Of a stretch of 64,000 bases of DNA, positions 1,271 through 35,036 are shown piece by piece. A program made the position numbers and the translations under genes. The stretch's first letter is position 1, and each line of letters begins with the position of its first letter. Under the pieces are notes generated by a model, which saw nothing but the letters and a program-made list of their open reading frames with translations, was not told the origin of the DNA and made no database searches. Where the stretch lies: the NCBI RefSeq assembly GCF_030384885.1, contig NZ_CP128613.1; one strand, given 5' to 3'. This DNA comes from Escherichia coli. GTDB taxonomy: Bacteria > Pseudomonadota > Gammaproteobacteria > Enterobacterales > Enterobacteriaceae.

Positions 1271-4200
1271 TTAACTCGCCTGGGAAGGCGCTTCGTCAGT
1301 TCCTGGAAGCGTTTCAGGGAGTTGCGGTGCAAAACCACGCAGACCGACTACGTGAACGTGTTCGGTATTCTGGAAGACTTTACGCACCAGTTTATAGGTG
1401 GTGCCTTTTTCCGGGCTGATATTTTCCGGCGCTGCGATGATGAGCTGCATTTGCAAACGCTCACACAATTCAAACAGCGTGGCGATGGAACGGGCGTCCA
1501 GTCGCGCTGCTTCATCGAGGAACAGCAGGCGGCAAGGAGAGATATCTTTACCGCGCAGGCGGCGAGATTCATCTTCCCAGCTTTGTACCACCATCACCAG
1601 AATCGACATACCGGTACCAATCGCCTCACCGGTCGACAGTGCGCCAGACTCCGCGCGCAACCAACCATCGGAACCACGGTTAACCTCAACTTCCATTTCC
1701 AGATAGTTGCGGTAATCCAGCAGTTCTTCACCGATAGTCTGCGGCGTGCGCTGCCCCATATCAATCTGCGGGTTAAGACGTTGATACAGTTTCGCCAGCG
1801 CTTCCGAGAAGGTCAGACGGTTGCTGTTAAACAGATCCTGATGCTGCTCGTGCTGTTCAGAGAGCACATCCAGCAGCATGGCGTGCGTTTCACGTACGTT
1901 CACGTTCAGACGTACGCTGTTCACCTGACCGAACGATACGTTCTGCAAGCCCTGGTTGAGCATACGGATACGATTCTGTTCGCGCTGAATGGTTTTGCGA
2001 ATGATGTTCGCCACGCTGCGGGAACTGATCGCCAGTTTCTGTTCGCGGGACGTTAACTCTTCAGTCAGACGGCTAAGTTCGATCTCCATCTGCTCGATAG
2101 CTTCAACCGGATCATCAGTACGAATAATATCCTGACGAATACGTTCACGCAGATGCTGATAAACCGCCACGAAGAACTGAATTTTACGCTCCGGACGTTT
2201 TGGATCTTCTGACAAACGCAGCACGTCGCGCAGATGTTCATTATCCGCCACCGCCAGACGCAGCGCGCCTAACGCCTTATCCGACATGGAACGCAAATCA
2301 TCAGCGGAGAGATAAGCCAGCTCACGACGGTGTAAGCGGCGCTCAACGCCGTTATCTTTCACCATGCGCATGACTGCACACCAGCCCGCTTTCGCGGTCA
2401 CTACCTGCTCGCGCATCTCAAAGTAATCACGCTCCAGCTTGCGCAGTTTGCGGGTCAGGTTGTCCATCTCCGCTTCGCAGAAGGTAAGCGCTTTTTCCAG
2501 TTGGTTGCGACGTGAACGGTTATTGTTCAGCTGCGCATGTAACTCATCACGGCGAATACGCGCCCGCTCTTCTGCCCCGCTATCAGCACGCACGCCGATA
2601 TCCTGCAATTCACGTTGCAGATCGTTGAGTAGCTCTTTTTTGGTGTCATACGAACTTTTCAGCGAAGCCAGTACCTGATTGTACTGACTTAACTGCGCGG
2701 CGTGTCCGCGCAACGCTTCACGAGCGCGGGTACGCTCCGCTTCCGCCTGTTCCAGACGTTCACGCAGTTTTTCGTTGAGATCGCTGTTACCGCTAAGCAT
2801 TTCTGCCGAGTCAGAGTAGCTAAAGTGCGCACGACGCTGCACCACTTCCGTCAGGGCAAACGCCTGCTGACGGGCATCGCGCTGCATCTGCTGAGAGTAC
2901 GCGTAATCTTCTTTTAGCTGTTCGAACTGTTCCGGGTCACTCTGCAATACCGAAACGATCGGTTCCAGTTTCGCCAGTTGATTACCGAACTGCTGAACAA
3001 AACGCGCGGCTTCCTGGGCTTCATCCAGACGTTCGCGGATTTCATCGACGCGATCCGCCAGGCTGTCATCAGCCAACAAGTTGAGACGCGGCAGAATGCG
3101 GTTCAGCGCCGTAACACCCTCTTTCGCCTGCTCAAACTGAATACGCTGCTGCTGGTTATCATTTTCATGATTACTCAACGCCCGCTCCAGTTCGACGCGA
3201 CGGCTGTTCAGTTGACGGATTTCGGCTTCCGGATCAGACTCAAACGCCACCGCCAGATGGCTGCCGATAAAGCGGCTGAACGCCTGATGCAGACGCTGGG
3301 TTTTCTGTACATCAAAGGAGAGCGTGGCGAAGCGTTCGGAAAGCACTTCACGCTCGGCATGGAGGCTTTCGATACGGCTTTCGCGCGCCGCGCGTCCAAA
3401 CAGCGGCACTTCCGGGAAACGTGAATAACGCCACTGACGATCGGCGATTTTCACCACTACCGCTTTTTCCAGCTCATCAACGCTGAACACGCTGTCATCG
3501 AATGACTGCGGATCCCCTTCGATCAAATAGAGATCTTCCGGGCAATCGGTCAAGCCTTCCAGGTGTTCGGTTACCTGTGACAGATCTGGCACCACGATGG
3601 CGTGGCGTGACGGGCCATACAGCGCTGAGAAGTACGGCGCATCTTCCAGGCTAACGTCGTCATAAATTTCTGACAGCAGCACGCCGCCAAAACGCTCCGC
3701 CAGCGCATTCAAACGCTGGTCTTCAGAACCACCTGGCTGGCTTAAACGTTCGATCTCTTCATCGACGGCGTTTTTGCGCGCGCCTACTTCATCGCGTTCA
3801 ACAATGGCTTCGCGCTCACGCTCCAGCAACTGTTGCAGATATTCGGTGACATCCTGGCTGGAAGAGAACTCTTCGCCGCACTGTTCGCTCAACTGGTTGA
3901 GGCTGTTTTGCGCTGCCAGCCAAACCGGCGCACGCTGCATCAAACTCTGAATGCGAGACTGCAGCTGTTCCTGCTCCTGACGCAGTGCCATGCGCTCTTC
4001 ACGGGCGTTAGAAACACTGTCGGAAAGAGAGGCAATGCGCGCTTCCAGCTCCTGATGCAGGGCTTCCAGCTCGTCGATATCAAAATTCTTGCCCTGACGT
4101 TTGCAGAAATCTGCCAACAGACGCTCAGCTTCTTGCTGCTCGCGCAGACGCTGTTCCAGTTCGCTTAAGCGCATCCGCAACGGCTGAACCTGCTCTGCCA

Positions 4201-5731
4201 GGTGACGCTGATCGACCCCTTCGCGCAATAGTTCGCGAGCGACATCCCACGCCTCGTTACGCGCCAGCGGGCCGTTGATTGCCACCACCAGCTGATAAGC
4301 CTGCTCAAACTGGCTGTGCGCGGTTTGCGCCATGCTCATTTTCTGCTCAAGAGAGAGCATTTTTTCGGTCGCTTCCAGCTCTTTCGCCTGGAAGGTTTCC
4401 AGCCATTCGGCAGCGCTGTCGGCGGTTAAGTCCGGCAGATGGCACAGTTCTTTGGCACGATTAAGCGCAGCAATCGCCTGGTTATACTGGATCGCGCGCG
4501 TTTGCTGGACGTCCAGCGCCTGCTGGTAGTCAGCAAGCTGGCTTTTCAGCTCGTCCACTTCCAGCTCGGCAGCTTCCGCACGAGCCTCGTTCTCTTCCTG
4601 GCGCTCGATGGCTTCTGCCACCACTTCGTTTTGCTCTTCCAGGCGGACCTGCAACTCATCGAGATCCGCTTCGTAGCGTTCAATCTTTTCCTGCTGACGC
4701 AGTGCGGTTTGCACCAGGTTCAGATGATCGCTGGCCGCCTGATAATCCGCCTCCAGATCGCCTTCGGCACCGTTGTGCTCAGCCAGCTCTCGCGCCATGT
4801 CGACGTGTTTGTACTGCTCAGCCGCCAGTTGCTGACGCGAAGTATGTAGCTCGCGACGAAACTCCAGGGCCTTATCGAGATGAACACGGCGCTCGTTGGC
4901 GTGACGCATGTAGTCCGCCGCCACGTAGTTAGTCGCTTCGCTGATCAGATGCTTGAACAAGTCACGGTCAGACTGGGTAACACGAATCGCTTCCAGCGTC
5001 ATACGGTTTTCACGCAGCGCCGCTTCCATGTCCTGAAACGCTTTACGCACGCCGCTATTTTCTGGCAACAGGTAGTCGCGCAGAGAACGGGTGATGGCGC
5101 TGGAAATCCCGCCGTACAGCGAAGCTTCAATCAGACGATAGAATTTACTACGATCAGACGCTGAGCGCAGACGACGTGCGATGATGCCCAGATCGAACAT
5201 CAGCGAGTGGTAATCGGTAATAGAGTTGAACTGCTTAAACTGCACGCCTTCCATCGCTTCGAGCTTGTCTTTCAGCTCGTTAAGCGGCAGTACACGCGCC
5301 TGACGTTCATTCAGAGTTTCGGTCACCAGTTGTGTCGGCTGCACCGACATCGGCAAGCCCTGAATGGCAAATGGTTTAATATCCACTTTACGATCGCGCC
5401 CGGCAACCTGTTGCAGACGCACGCCGACCACCACGCGCTGATGGCGCGAGTTAATGGTGTCGAGCATCGAATAGCAGACACCCGCTTTCAGCTTACCGTG
5501 CAGACCTTTATCGCGCGAACCGCTGGTGGCCCCGGCTTCCGTAGTGTTACGGAAATGCAGCAGGGTCAGGTCGGGGATCAGCGCCGTAACGAACGCCGCC
5601 ATGGTGGTGGATTTACCCGCCCCGTTACCGCCAGAAAGCGTCGTGACCAGCTCGTCAAGGTCAAAAGTTCGGGCAAAAAAGCCGTTCCAGTTAATCAGCG
5701 TCAGTGAGCGAAATTTACCGCGTTCAATCAT
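1271..5731 (-). CDS. mukB: Chromosome partition protein MukB (SMC-like condensin subunit)
   Basis: 1486-aa ORF; N-terminal Walker A (GGNGAGKST), long coiled-coil region, C-terminal ATPase part; 1-nt TAATG overlap with the mukE stop. Confidence 0.97.
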
Positions 5732-6435
5732 TATTCTTCCTCTCCGCTATCTGGCTGATTCTCTTCGGTTTCATCGTTGAGTTGCAGATGATTTTCAATC
5801 GGCATTGCTTCGCCATCACGAATCAGGCGACGCTGTGCTTCACGGGGATCGTCGCCAGCACGCACATCGGCTCCGAAGCGGAACACCGATTCGGTAATGC
5901 GGAACTTGCTGCTGTCGTGGCCCATAAACCACACCATGCCTAAACGACGCAGACGGTTGAGCGAAGAACGTACTTTCTCCTGCAACTTCTGCCGGTCAAC
6001 GTCTGAACCGGTTGAACGGTTGTTCACCAGTTTCAGCAGTTTCGCTTCATCGGCCAGGGTGAGCAGTTCATCGTACAGTTCCTGCTGGGTGAAAATCCCC
6101 TCATTCGCCAGCCGTTCCGGGCTGAGATAAAGATAACAGAGGATTTTCCCGACCATCATATCCAGTTCCGACAAGACGGAACGAGGGATAATAGTGGTGG
6201 AACGTGGGCGTAAATAGAAGAACCCCTCCGGTGCGCGAATAAGCTCAACGTTATAACGCGCGTAAAATTCTTCCAGATATTCCTGAAAATCCATCAGGAA
6301 TGCATGATTATCCAGTTCGTCAAGGCCAATATGGCGGCCTGAACGTAAGGCGCTATCCAGCGCCGGAAATAACGGATTCGCCAGCGCCTGCGCCAGCTTA
6401 ACCGGCATCACTTGTTCAATATTTGTCGATGACAT
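5731..6435 (-). CDS. mukE: Condensin subunit MukE
   Basis: Track ORF 5731..6462; start chosen at ATG 6435 ([16 protein letters not shown]..., 234 aa), which overlaps the mukF 3' end by 20 nt. Alternative starts at 6462 and 6408 cannot be excluded from sequence alone. Confidence 0.88.
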
Positions 6436-20171: not shown

Positions 20172-20855
20172 TTATGCGAGAGCCAATTTCTGGCGCGCGT
20201 ATTGTAGCGCTTTTTCAATCACTTGCTCAATGCTTAAGGTGGTGGAATCCAACACTAAAGCATCGGCTGCCGGAACCAGTGGCGCTACCGCTCGGTTACG
20301 ATCGCGGTCGTCGCGTTCTTTGATCTCGGCCAAAAGGCGCTCAAAGTTAACACTAAAGCCCTTCTCCTGCAACTGTAGCATGCGGCGATGCGCACGTTCT
20401 TCCGAGGAGGCGTCAAGGAAAATTTTCACTGGCGCATCAGGGAATACCACCGTTCCCATATCGCGGCCATCGGCAATCAAGCCTGGTAATTCGCGAAACG
20501 CGCGTTGGCGACGCAATAATGCTTCACGAACGCGTGGGAATGCCGCGACTTGTGAAGCAGCATTCGCCACTTCCTGAGTACGAATTTCGCCGCTGACATC
20601 TTCCCCTTCGAGGATCACTTCCAGATTGCCATTGGTCGACACAAAACGGACATCCAGATGGGATGCCAGCGGCACGAGCGCATCTTCCGATGCAACATCA
20701 ACATGGTGATGTAATGCCGCCAGTGCCAGTACGCGATAAATTGCACCCGAGTCCAGCAGATGCCATTGCAACGCTTCCGCCATAGCCTTACACAAGGTGC
20801 CTTTCCCTGCACCGCTTGGGCCATCAATGGTAATAACCGGGGCAATTGCCGTCAT
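20172..20855 (-). CDS. cmk: Cytidylate kinase
   Basis: 227-aa ORF; P-loop GPSGAGKGT. Confidence 0.96.
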
Positions 20856-21027: not shown

Positions 21028-21792
21028 TTACTTACCAGAGGCGATACGATCACGGATGTGTTGCGCACGCTCTGTTGATGGTGGGTGAGAGTCAAACATG
21101 GACTGGGTACGGCCGCCATCCAGGCTGGCCAATTTTTCAAAGCTGCCAACCAGCCCCTGGGTGCTGATGCCACGTTTCTTCAACAGATCAAAGGAGAAAT
21201 CATCTGCTTCGGACTCTTTATCGCGGGAGTATTTAGCATTGATCGCGCCTTCTGCGATATCACCTAATTGTGAGCGAGAAAGCTGGGAAGCCACACCGCT
21301 GGTAGCGGAAATCGCATCACGTGCGGCAACGATCGCATAAGAAGCTTTCATTTCAGCCAGCGAGTGACCCAACGCGACGTGGCCCAGTTCATGACCCAGA
21401 ACGCCTTCAATTTCGTTGTCGTTCATCATGTCCATCAGGCCACTATAGACACGAACACAGCCGTTCGCCATCGCCCATGCGTTGACGTCGCTGGTCATAT
21501 AAACCTTATAGTTGACCGGCGTGCCATTAATATTGTTACCCAATGCTTTGGCGATTTTTGCCAGACGTTTACCGTACTTGCTGGATTTACTTGCGACTTG
21601 ATTGCCGCTGTCCATTTCGGCACAGCCCTGATTGGCAATCGCTTTTGCATCAGCATCGCTTAACGTTGCTGCTTTATAGGCATTTAAACCTGAGCTGATA
21701 GCCATATTGGTATCAATACCGTGGGTATTCTGACACCCTGTCAGTAAAGCTGCAGAGGCCGCAATCGCCAGCAGTAATTTAGTATTCTTCAT
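21028..21792 (-). CDS. ycaL: M48-family metalloprotease lipoprotein YcaL
   Basis: Track ORF 262 aa; start taken at ATG 21792 (MKNTKLLLAIAASAALLTGC, lipobox); HELGH zinc motif. Confidence 0.88.
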   Translation of the reverse strand: MKNTKLLLAIAASAALLTGCQNTHGIDTNMAISSGLNAYKAATLSDADAKAIANQGCAEMDSGNQVASKSSKYGKRLAKIAKALGNNINGTPVNYKVYMTSDVNAWAMANGCVRVYSGLMDMMNDNEIEGVLGHELGHVALGHSLAEMKASYAIVAARDAISATSGVASQLSRSQLGDIAEGAINAKYSRDKESEADDFSFDLLKKRGISTQGLVGSFEKLASLDGGRTQSMFDSHPPSTERAQHIRDRIASGK

Positions 21793-21898
21793 GTGAATCA
21801 TCCGTTGATTAATCATATATAAATATTATGTATCAATAACTTACATTGACAAACGACGCTACCATTAATCAAAATGACTCACAAGGTCCGAAAAAAAA

Positions 21899-21925
21899 CG
21901 CCGGCAATGTGCCGACGTTTTGATA
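21899..21925 (-). terminator. Intrinsic terminator downstream of aroA
   Basis: Hairpin cgccggca-atg-tgccgacg flanked by A8 on the plus strand (T8 on the minus strand), about 35 nt after the aroA stop. Confidence 0.7.
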
Positions 21926-21960: not shown

Positions 21961-23244
21961 TCAGGCTGCCTGGCTAATCCGCGCCAGCTGCTCGAAATAA
22001 TCCGGAAATGTTTTGGCCGTGCATTTGGGATCAAGAATCGTCACTGGTGTATCTGACAACGCCACCAGCGAGAAACACATCGCCATCCGGTGATCATTGT
22101 ATGTTGCGATCTCGGCAAAGTTCAGTTTTTCCGGTGGAGTGATACGAATGTAATCGTGCCCCTCTTCTACTTCCGCACCAACTTTACGCAGTTCTGTTGC
22201 CATCGCAAACAGGCGATCGGTCTCTTTAACACGCCAGTTATAGATATTGCGCAGCGTGGTGGTGCCTTTTGCAAATAACGCCGCCGTGGCAATGGTCATC
22301 GCCGCATCAGGAATATGGTTCATATCCATATCAATAGCGTTCAGTTCACCCCGCGTGCAGGAAATATAATCATCGCCCCAGCAAATGGTCGCGCCCATTT
22401 TTTCCAGCACATCAGCAAAGCGAATATCACCCTGCATACTGTTGCGTCCAATGCCGGTCACTTTTACAGTGCCGCCTTTGATTGCTGCTGCTGCCAGGAA
22501 GTAAGAAGCCGAAGATGCATCGCCTTCGACCAAATAAGTACCCGGAGACTGATAAGACTGCCCGCCTTTTACGACAAATTGTTGATAGTGCTGATTTTCA
22601 ATTTCAACACCAAACGTCTTCATCAGATTGAGTGTGATGTCGATATAAGGTTTAGAGACCAGATCGCCTTTAATACGAATCACCGTATCTTCCGGCGCAA
22701 GAGGCGCAGTCATTAACAGTGCGGTGAGAAACTGACTGGAAACGGAGCCATCAACGTCAACGTTGCCGCCAGTAAAGCCGCCCTGTAAACGCAATGGTGG
22801 ATAATTTTCTTGTTCCAGGTAAGTGATCTTCGCCCCACCCAGGCGCAGCGCATCCACCAGATGACCAATGGGGCGTTCTTTCATACGCGGTTCACCGGTC
22901 AGCACAATATCATTGCTACCCAGACAAAGAGCTGCCGCCAGCGGACGCATTGCCGTTCCGGCGTTACCGAGGAACAACTCCAGGGCACTTTTTGCGTGTA
23001 ATGGACCGCCGTTACCGATGATTTCGCAACGCGTACGATCGGCTGAAAGCGTATAGCTTACCCCTAACGCTGTTAATGCATTCAGCATATGGCGCACGTC
23101 ATCGCTATCCAGCAGATTGGTTAATACTGTTTTGCCGTGTGCTAATGCCGCCAGCAATAAAGCGCGGTTAGAAACGCTCTTGGAACCGGGCAGATTAATG
23201 GTGCCATCGACACGAGCGATGGGTTGTAACGTCAGGGATTCCAT
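21961..23244 (-). CDS. aroA: 3-phosphoshikimate 1-carboxyvinyltransferase (EPSP synthase)
   Basis: 427-aa [26 protein letters not shown]... Confidence 0.97.
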
Positions 23245-23267
23245 GAACTCAACTCTCTACAACAGAA

Positions 23268-23295
23268 ATAAAAACCCCACAGGCTGGCTGTGGGG
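23268..23295 (-). terminator. Intercistronic hairpin/partial terminator between serC and aroA
   Basis: Perfect 8-bp stem ccccacag/ctgtgggg followed on the minus strand by TTTTTATTT, within the 70-bp serC-aroA spacer. Confidence 0.65.
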
Positions 23296-23314
23296 ATTAA
23301 GCAAAATTTCGGCA

Positions 23315-24403
23315 TTAGCCGTGACGGCGTTCGAACTCAATCATGAAGTCTGTCAGCGCTTTAACGCCTTCCAGAGGCATTGCGTTATAAATTGACGCAC
23401 GCATACCGCCGACCACACGATGCCCTTTCAGGGCATGCAGCCCCGCAGCAAAAGACTCTTCAAGGAACAATTTGTCAAGCGCACTGTCCGCCAACTGGAA
23501 CGGCACGTTCATCCGCGAACGGTTAGCTTTCGCCACGTCATTGCGGTAGAAATCGCTGTTATCAATCACCCCATACAGCAGTTCTGCTTTTTGCTGATTG
23601 ATTTTATCCATTGCAGCCACGCCGCCGTTCGCTTTCAGCCATTTGAATACCAGACCGGACAGGTACCAGGCAAATGTCGGCGGCGTGTTAAACATGGAGT
23701 CGTTATCGTTAAGGATGGAATAATCCAGAATCGACGGACAAGCGATATTCGCTTTACCCAGTAAGTCTTCACGAACGATGACGATTGTCAGGCCCGCCGG
23801 GCCGATATTTTTCTGTGCGCCAGCATAAATCACACCGTAACGACTGACGTCAATTGGACGGGAAAGAATCGTTGAAGAGAAGTCGGCTGCAACCACCACT
23901 TCTTTACCAAAGTCTGGCGTTTCGTCGATGGCGATACCATCGATGGTCTCATTTGGGCAGTAATGCATATAAGCGGCATTATCAGAGAGCTGCCATTCAC
24001 GCATTGGCTTAACCGCACGAAGACCATCAACAGTCACTTTGGCGTCAAAGACATTTGGCTTGCAGTATTTTTTCGCTTCTTTAATGGCACTTGCCGCCCA
24101 GTAACCGGCATCAACATAATCTGCAGTGGTTTTATCACCAAGAATATTCAACGGTACTGCAGCAAATTGACCGCGACCACCGCCGTGGCAGAACAATACT
24201 TTATAGTTGGAGGGGATATTAAGAAGATCGCGAAAATCCTTCTCGGCTTCCTCTGCAACCTGAATGAACTCTTTACCACGGTGGCTCACTTCCATCACCG
24301 ACGTACCAAGACCGTTCCAGTCGCGCAGTTCCTGTTGAGCCTGTTTAAGCACCTCTGCCGGTAGCATTGCCGGACCAGAACTAAAATTGAAGATTTGAGC
24401 CAT
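23315..24403 (-). CDS. serC: Phosphoserine aminotransferase
   Basis: 362-aa [23 protein letters not shown]... Confidence 0.97.
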
Positions 24404-24601
24404 TTCCCCTCACCACGTTGCGTTGCCATTAACCCACGGACAATCGATTGCGACCGCGGGTAATACATTATTCCTGTGGCTATCGGTTTTATCATTCAGT
24501 GGCGCGCATCGCAATGGGTAAAACAGTCGAGGGCAAAAATGCGGCACGCGTCACACAATAGAATCTCTCGGATTATTGTCCAAAAACCGATTTTTTTGCT
24601 G

Positions 24602-25294
24602 TCAGGTCACCCGTTTAGCCCGACTTGCCTTCGTCCATTCTGGATTTGCACAGCGCGGACATAATTGTTTTTCCCCTGCATTCATATGAATGATCTCACT
24701 GCAACGGATGCAAGCATAGTCCGCCGACTCAGGCACCACTTTGTAACGCTGAGTACAGTCACTGGGTAAAATAAGTAATCCCGGTTTGACCTTGTCATCT
24801 TCAAAGAAATAGACACTGATTTGCCCGTTGGTTTCGAGAATCGCCAGACGTACCTGCCCCAACTGCTCCACTCCACGCAGTCGCAGCTCCATAAAGAACT
24901 CAAATTCCGTCATGTTGGAGTTATTAAGTTTCGACCAGGCCAGCTCACCATCCTCAATAATGACAACCGGCTTGCCTTCCAGAAGATCCTCCAGTTTTTC
25001 ACTGTGCGCCATCAACCACATTACCAGACGGTATAACAACGCCAGAGTAATAAAGACGATAAGCACCGGAACCATCGGCACATCATCATAAAACGCCACA
25101 TCCCCCGCCGCTGACCCCAGCGTCAGAATGATTAACACTTCAAACAGCGACATCTGCCGCACACCGCGTCTGCCGGTCATTTTGAGGAACAAAAAAACCA
25201 GTACAAAGGTATAAAGACTACGTAGTGCAACTTCGCCAAGGAAATCAAAAGGCACTTTATCAAATGCCATACGGTGGAGATCGAATGCCTTCAT
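24602..25294 (-). CDS. ycaP: DUF421-family inner membrane protein YcaP
   Basis: 230-aa ORF with N-terminal TM helices; synteny. Confidence 0.85.
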   Translation of the reverse strand: MKAFDLHRMAFDKVPFDFLGEVALRSLYTFVLVFLFLKMTGRRGVRQMSLFEVLIILTLGSAAGDVAFYDDVPMVPVLIVFITLALLYRLVMWLMAHSEKLEDLLEGKPVVIIEDGELAWSKLNNSNMTEFEFFMELRLRGVEQLGQVRLAILETNGQISVYFFEDDKVKPGLLILPSDCTQRYKVVPESADYACIRCSEIIHMNAGEKQLCPRCANPEWTKASRAKRVT

Positions 25295-34827: not shown

Positions 34828-35036
34828 AGACAAATCCTTCGCCAAAATTAAAGGGGCATCTGTAAAACGAGGGATTATGCGCGGCAAATAAGAAGTGCGG
34901 AAATAGCGAAATGCAAAATTATAACCTGCTGCACATTTTATTTTGAAACGAATAAAATTTTGAAAAAAGCAAGTCAGAGAGAAGAAACAAAAAAGCAGAG
35001 TGTGAAACAGTAAGTTCACACTCTGCGTTAATTCAT

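Follow-up and report, generated by a model that had tools for sequence, protein, structure and literature searches.

Genes and features of the serC-aroA locus

The 64-kb stretch of Escherichia coli DNA analyzed here, referred to as the window, carries ycaP, serC, aroA, loiP/ycaL and cmk in succession on the minus strand, with ycaO on the plus strand and divergent from them. Gene identities follow from the list of open reading frames and from NCBIfam matches, and the matched E. coli genomes also annotate the first gene of the operon as serC. The features of the locus are collected in Table 1.

Table 1. Features of the serC-aroA operon and its surroundings (window coordinates)
Feature	Position	Strand	Details	Basis
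ycaP	24602-25294	minus		ORF list and NCBIfam
Putative serC promoter element	24494-24486	minus	extended -10-like TGaTAAAAC	sequence
serC transcription start	24478	minus		transferred from K-12 957578 (Yan et al. 2018, Supplementary Data 1 and 2)
serC	23315-24403	minus	phosphoserine/phosphohydroxythreonine aminotransferase, 362 aa; operon gene 1	NCBIfam PRK05355, 557 bits, E = 1.5e-167
serC-aroA intercistronic spacer	23245-23314	minus	exactly 70 nt	
Terminator hairpin	23275-23295	minus	5' arm 23295-23288 (CCCCACAG), loop 23287-23283 (CCAGC), 3' arm 23282-23275 (CUGUGGGG)	
U-tract	23266-23274	minus	UUUUUAUUU; begins at the base next to the stem	
Putative aroA Shine-Dalgarno-like site	23253-23257	minus	GAGAG, 8 nt before the AUG; GAGA invariant in the 20-species alignment	
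aroA	21961-23244	minus	EPSP synthase, 427 aa; operon gene 2, transcribed through read-through only	NCBIfam TIGR01356, 466 bits, E = 1.2e-139
Operon-distal terminator after aroA	21891-21921	minus	AAAA-CGUCGGCA-CAU-UGCCGGCG-UUUUUUUU	sequence and fold
loiP/ycaL	21028-21816	minus		ORF list and NCBIfam
cmk	20172-20855	minus		ORF list and NCBIfam

On the minus strand, the spacer between the two cistrons reads UGCCGAAAUUUUGCUUAAU-CCCCACAG-CCAGC-CUGUGGGG-UUUUUAUUU-CUGUUGUAGAGAGUUGAGUUC and is followed directly by the aroA AUG. No short leader ORF was found within its 70 nt.

With the start site transferred from K-12, serC transcription begins 75 nt ahead of the serC AUG. The TGaTAAAAC upstream of this start may be the serC promoter element, while a consensus promoter scan chose AATAAT (24472-24467) in its place. 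The serC-aroA operon was reportedly described by Duncan and Coggins in 1986, who are said to have placed the promoter 58 bp upstream; this differs from the 75 nt given by the K-12 start at 957578.

The intercistronic hairpin and its U-tract

The original prediction described an 8-bp G/C-rich stem and a coding-strand T-tract in the gap between serC and aroA, and the stem sequence, the 70-bp length of the gap and the identities of the two genes all proved correct. The stem comprises eight perfect pairs, six of which are G-C, closed by a 5-nt loop and followed by the tail TTTTTATTTC; it was the first-listed site in a terminator scan of the 5-kb region. Eight of the nine nucleotides in the tract that follows are U. 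When folded in isolation, the hairpin has a free energy of -13.4 kcal/mol and an ensemble frequency of 93%. It starts 19 nt downstream of the serC stop codon and leaves only 30 nt of spacer between the stem and the aroA AUG. The site thus combines a G/C-rich stem, a short loop and an adjoining U-rich tract, the canonical features of an intrinsic terminator.

Strict criteria (a Watson-Crick stem of at least 8 bp with at least 6 G-C pairs, a loop of 3-8 nt and at least 7 T in the next 9 nt) returned two sites on both strands of the 64-kb window, compared to a mean of 0.017 in 60 dinucleotide-preserving shuffles. Sites of the serC-aroA grade are approximately 100 times rarer in shuffled sequence than in the window. 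The other site that satisfied the same criteria is located at 34995-35026 on the minus strand, where a 12-bp stem (GCAGAGTGTGAA/TTCACACTCTGC) is followed by TTTTTTGTT.

The serC-aroA element lacks the makings of a bidirectional terminator. The 5' flank of the stem is UUGCUUAAU, the plus-strand sequence after the stem is ATTAAGCAAAA, and a terminator scan of the plus strand called no site at the spacer. The terminator after aroA, AAAACGUCGGCACAUUGCCGGCGUUUUUUUU, has both an A-tract and a U-tract and may therefore be bidirectional. Its only call in the consensus scan was on the plus strand; the minus-strand site escaped because its stem runs on into the U-tract through A-U pairs.

Transcript ends in E. 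coli K-12

The spacer is identical at 70 of 70 positions to that of K-12 MG1655 (NC_000913.3, 958742-958811). Since the two are the same base for base, transcript data from K-12 apply directly. A gap-free alignment of 3701 nt sets the conversion, whereby a window coordinate equals 982056 minus the K-12 coordinate.

Full-length, unfragmented MG1655 transcripts bearing a 5'-triphosphate have been sequenced by SMRT-Cappable-seq from cells grown in M9 medium (Yan et al. 2018, PMC6131387). Sheet M9_TTS of Supplementary Data 1 in that study lists a forward transcript of NC_000913.3 from 957578 to 958786, assigned to b0907 and classed as novelTTS. Of the 1145 reads that begin at the serC start site 957578, 347 end at 958786 and a further 32 end no more than 50 bp past it, while 419 continue for 50 bp or more, their median extension being 872 bp (Yan et al. 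2018, PMC6131387). The end at 958786 coincides with the fifth U of the tract (23270 in the window) and falls within the range 958782-958790 that had been predicted from the sequence before the transcript-end data. From these counts, approximately 47% of the transcripts arriving at the site end at it and 53% read through, values that are approximate given a library biased by size selection for 1-6 kb. The original prediction of a partial intrinsic terminator is therefore supported by the K-12 data, with 347 reads ending in the U-tract and 419 crossing it; the outcome it had named as contrary, an absence of 3' ends at the hairpin, was in effect checked by the end found at 958786.

The operon table of the same study contains two units that start at 957578, namely serC alone and serC-aroA-ycaL, and lists as already on record in RegulonDB the units b0907, b0907 with b0908, and b0909 (Yan et al. 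2018, PMC6131387, Supplementary Data 2). The longer reads pass the terminator after aroA and enter ycaL, aroA appears in one transcriptional context only, and the table has no unit composed of aroA alone (Yan et al. 2018, PMC6131387). Terminated and read-through transcripts in K-12 grown in M9 medium hence share one promoter, and RNA 3' ends lie inside the U-tract in vivo on an identical sequence. It had also been proposed that serC and aroA are expressed at different levels from a single promoter. This agrees with the origin of both units at 957578 and with the consensus scan, in which no sigma-70-like site that could act as a separate aroA promoter was seen on the minus strand in or near the spacer.

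These data leave very little room for a reading in which termination after serC is complete and aroA has a promoter of its own. The hairpin and U-tract are strong by sequence, as such a terminator would be; however, 419 primary-transcript reads from the serC promoter cross the site, neither an aroA-only unit nor a sigma-70-like site on the minus strand in or near the spacer was found, and a mere 30 nt separate the stem from the aroA AUG. A complete terminator is thus barely credible.

The 3' end was called in M9 medium only, with no row in the rich-medium data (Yan et al. 2018, PMC6131387). No 3' end at serC, aroA or 9587xx appears in the curated Term-seq list of Adams et al. 2021; since that list is also empty across the whole ycaO-ycaP-serC-aroA-ycaL-cmk region, this negative says little. 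The supplements of Dar and Sorek 2018 have no serC or aroA entry, and a full-text literature search found no text on termination at serC-aroA or pdxF. The partial terminator is nonetheless already known, as RegulonDB holds both serC and serC-aroA units and the 3' end was published in 2018. The element is the intercistronic terminator of K-12, in the same ycaP-serC-aroA-ycaL-cmk gene order and with an identical spacer.

Transcripts of serC-aroA were reportedly mapped by Man, Pease and Winkler in 1997, who are said to have found about 80-88% of serC transcripts to be monocistronic, with likely Rho-independent termination between serC and aroA. The 1997 range is higher than the approximately 47% of the 2018 data, perhaps due to the method used and to RNA stability.

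Conservation in E. coli and a divergent serC allele

The region was matched in 5425 of 5426 complete E. coli genomes. A 38-nt core, made up of the hairpin and U-tract plus 4 flanking nt at either end, is unchanged in 5404 of the 5426 complete-genome records, while the remaining 22 differ slightly (95-99% identity band). In three variant strains that were sampled, the differences are located upstream of the hairpin.

While the element is unchanged relative to K-12, the serC allele of the window and the ycaP-serC region are unusually divergent. Identity over 3.7 kb is 95.9%, which seems low for two E. coli strains. Mismatches per 100 nt number about 5-10 in serC and about 0-5 in aroA, with none in the spacer and 17 in the ycaP-serC intergenic and promoter region (24500-24599). 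The SerC protein of the window is 98.1% identical to that of K-12 and 98.6% identical to that of E. albertii. The sequence comparison suggests that the serC allele is divergent or recombinant, with a boundary near the terminator (23300-24600 against 21961-23299).

One E. coli strain, P31_YH1_02.21 (NZ_CP085063.1; locus L082), contains two copies of IS200C at 3060-3800 and 5150-5960 of the locus, which correspond to positions of approximately 23267 and 21891 in the window. Both copies sit right after the last T of the U-tract of an intrinsic terminator. The first follows the serC-aroA terminator (GGGGTTTTTATT / GTGCACAG) and precedes the aroA ribosome-binding site, and the second follows the aroA terminator (GCCGGCGTTTTTTTT / GTGCACAG). 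This placement suggests that terminator tails are targets of IS200C, and the first copy may bear on how aroA is expressed in P31_YH1_02.21.

Conservation among relatives

A search with AroA that retained one genome per species produced a comparative set of 80 loci. In the loci from Enterobacterales, serC lies directly upstream of aroA; this is not the case in those from Vibrionaceae, Pasteurellaceae or Orbaceae. Hairpins were scored across the loci as RNAfold-based local hairpins, in which the stem can reach into the U-tract by way of A-U pairs.

In each of the 20 Enterobacteriaceae, the spacer (67-83 nt) contains a CCCC...GGGG hairpin and, after it, a U-rich tail. The distance from the serC stop codon to the hairpin is 15-26 nt, and that from the hairpin to the aroA start is approximately 30 nt. 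In an alignment of these 20 species, 94.4% of pair cells are paired, and sliding the 3' partners lowers this to 38-66%. Pair 5 of the stem alternates between G-C and A-U in five species. Changes on both sides of a pair amount to 6 cells against 1.8 in column shuffles, and none of 500 shuffles reached 6. The four outer C-G pairs are nearly fixed, with three invariant and one variable in a single species; since they hardly vary, they are uninformative on covariation either way. Among relatives, it is therefore the structure of the serC-aroA hairpin that has been conserved over its sequence. Two irregular cases were noted in the comparative set: the hairpin of locus L007 has an internal mismatch, and that of locus L048 has a 10-nt loop.

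The other families of Enterobacterales have 29 loci with a spacer of 342 nt or less, and at this position all 29 form a hairpin of another sequence with a free energy of -12 to -24 kcal/mol. The stems of Pantoea (GACUCCGCC/GGCGGAGUC), Morganella (CGGACCCGGG/CCCGGGUCCG) and Yersinia (CAACAGCCCCG/CGGGGCUGUUG) are all unlike the Enterobacteriaceae stem. Enterobacteriaceae retain the U-tract, as do many Erwiniaceae, Serratia and Dickeya, whereas Yersinia and Photorhabdus lack it. A strong hairpin downstream of serC is conserved in these last two genera, with 12-13 bp and a free energy of -22 to -24 kcal/mol in Yersinia (L031, L034 and L035) and 8-9 bp in Photorhabdus (L038, L042 and L045-L047); with no U-tract, it is probably not a canonical intrinsic terminator in either genus. 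The spacer of Yersinia aldovae (L034, locus positions of approximately 2243-2500) is 258 nt long compared to about 110-130 nt, owing to an insert that contains AAGTAAGTGACTGGGGTGAACG and is presumably ERIC-like. The insert lies upstream of the conserved hairpin, and both the hairpin and its distance to aroA are unchanged.

The hairpins of Yersinia and Photorhabdus bear on a second explanation, in which the hairpin is mainly an mRNA stability element. RNA polymerase would then read through in essentially every case, and serC-only RNA would be produced by endonuclease cleavage and by 3'-to-5' trimming that halts at the stem, as it does at REP or stem-loop stabilizers of other operons. A hairpin that does not terminate seems to be maintained in these two genera, sequencing at steady state cannot separate termination from trimming, and the median read-through extension of 872 nt is shorter than aroA and compatible with decay from the 3' side. 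However, an exonuclease barrier needs no U-tract, and one adjoins the stem in 20 of 20 Enterobacteriaceae. The mapped end also lies inside the U-tract, as expected of intrinsic termination, and a terminator structure is predicted at 386 of 408 sites of the same class (Yan et al. 2018, PMC6131387). A stability element is on balance an unlikely account of the E. coli site, where the 3' ends would arise by termination rather than by trimming. A pure stability hairpin may be what remains in Yersinia and Photorhabdus.

Search for a regulatory switch

A third explanation is a regulated attenuator, in which a signal switches read-through into aroA by means of a protein, a small RNA or an alternative fold of the transcript. 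Aromatic amino acids, serine and growth rate were considered as signals. Some transcript data lean in this direction. In M9 medium, serC was reported in two transcriptional contexts, compared to a single context in rich medium (Yan et al. 2018, PMC6131387, Supplementary Data 4), a contrast that may reflect lower serC expression and read depth. Read-through at other terminators within operons depends on conditions (Yan et al. 2018, PMC6131387), and the short distance from the stop codon to the hairpin would make the efficiency of termination sensitive to translation (Li et al. 2016, PMC4824070).

The structural parts of an attenuator were not found. In a 155-nt fold, the hairpin stands alone and neither arm has an antiterminator partner. 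Words resembling CUGUGGGG are not enriched in the window (32 found, 41 expected), and none is placed to compete with the hairpin. The sole nearby CUGCGGGG is 146 nt upstream and within a translated gene. A search of 4 kb around the site against Rfam (E <= 1) identified no family; a match to a plant microRNA at 21781-21887 was set aside as a chance match located away from the hairpin. The minimum-energy fold of the 70-nt spacer (z = -2.0) also contained an outer helix, GCUUAAU/GUUGAGU, near the aroA ribosome-binding site. This helix was rejected since its upstream arm is unconserved and RNAalifold does not produce it across species. Upstream of the terminator, the 155-nt fold and the Rfam search thus showed neither an antiterminator structure nor a known ligand- or protein-binding RNA domain.

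With no antiterminator partner, leader ORF or Rfam family, and with an outer helix that is not conserved, a regulated attenuator is improbable. The absence of an antiterminator, a leader peptide and an Rfam family gives the element the appearance of a constitutive partial terminator. Given the anatomy and conservation of the hairpin, a transcript end that falls in the U-tract, and primary transcripts of both the terminated and the read-through kind, the serC-aroA element is very probably a constitutive partial Rho-independent terminator within the operon.

A model for partial termination

As a constitutive partial terminator, the element would act as follows. RNA polymerase would start at the serC promoter, transcribe serC, and then meet the hairpin 19 nt past the stop codon together with UUUUUAUUU. 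In a fraction of the complexes, the hairpin would form and the RNA would be released in the U-tract, yielding a monocistronic serC mRNA that is stable and carries a hairpin at its 3' end. The other complexes would proceed into aroA and, past the second terminator, partly into ycaL. The aroA message would accordingly be a fixed fraction of the serC message, with both under a single regulated promoter.

The leakiness of the terminator may be set in part by the ribosome that finishes translation of serC near the hairpin. Intrinsic terminators located less than 30 bp from a stop codon are repressed by the terminating ribosome, and at 17-18 bp the efficiency of termination varies with the sequence between 0.12 and 0.8 (Li et al. 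2016, PMC4824070). At 19 nt, the serC-aroA hairpin falls inside this range of distances. The small RNA GcvB represses serC translation; serC and aroA mRNA fall together, while an aroA translational fusion is not repressed (PMC11878033). The authors attributed this effect to decay of the bicistronic RNA (PMC11878033). The GcvB data are consistent with aroA being dependent on serC transcripts, and they fit the idea that the proximity of the ribosome contributes to the leakiness.

A further reading, tentative and rather doubtful, is that the terminator is a translation-sensitive valve as opposed to a fixed leak and that the hairpin has in addition a function independent of termination. The first part is suggested by the position of the hairpin 15-26 nt past the serC stop codon in 20 Enterobacteriaceae, within the range of less than 30 nt in which ribosomes repress termination. 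The second is suggested by the retention of the hairpin without a U-tract in Yersinia and Photorhabdus, and by the distance from the hairpin to aroA (approximately 30 nt), which is better conserved than its distance to serC. Were the terminator a valve of this kind, the ratio of aroA to serC transcripts would track the coupling of serC translation to transcription, including the repression of serC translation by GcvB.

Comparison with known systems

Partial intrinsic terminators within operons are also found in E. coli at the rplL-rpoB attenuator and the rpsU-dnaG-rpoD internal terminator. The operons prs-dauA and dapA-bamC likewise have a hairpin and U-tract between cistrons, with substantial read-through setting the ratio of messages (Yan et al. 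2018, PMC6131387). However, read-through at both of these sites is condition-dependent (Yan et al. 2018, PMC6131387), and nothing alike was found at serC-aroA. The attenuator-like structure upstream of dapA-bamC (Yan et al. 2018, PMC6131387) also has no counterpart found at serC-aroA.

The leader-peptide attenuators trpL and pheL likewise place an intrinsic terminator ahead of an aromatic-pathway gene and limit its transcription. They do so from a 5' leader that contains a short leader ORF and can form either an antiterminator or a terminator helix. In contrast, the serC-aroA terminator follows a full-length gene of 362 codons and has no alternative helix in the 155-nt fold.

The malE-malF element is one of the intercistronic stem-loop or REP elements that stabilize mRNA, have no U-tract and act after transcription. 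It resembles the serC-aroA hairpin in being a stable hairpin after the first cistron, with more message upstream than downstream. The two differ in that the U-tract at serC-aroA is conserved and contains the 3' end.

Implications

The site may serve as a positive control, since it is a functional partial terminator that was recognized from sequence alone. If the element is a partial terminator, a change of the 5' arm from CCCCACAG to CCGGACAG would be expected to raise aroA approximately twofold or more. A drop of about twofold or more at this position should likewise be allowed for when aroA is overexpressed for the production of aromatics or shikimate, and when RNA-seq coverage is read across the operon.

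The serC promoter is regulated by CRP and Lrp, and serC is regulated post-transcriptionally by GcvB. SerC is used in both serine and vitamin B6 synthesis, while AroA catalyzes one step of the shikimate pathway. The element between the two genes would explain how one promoter can give more SerC than AroA.
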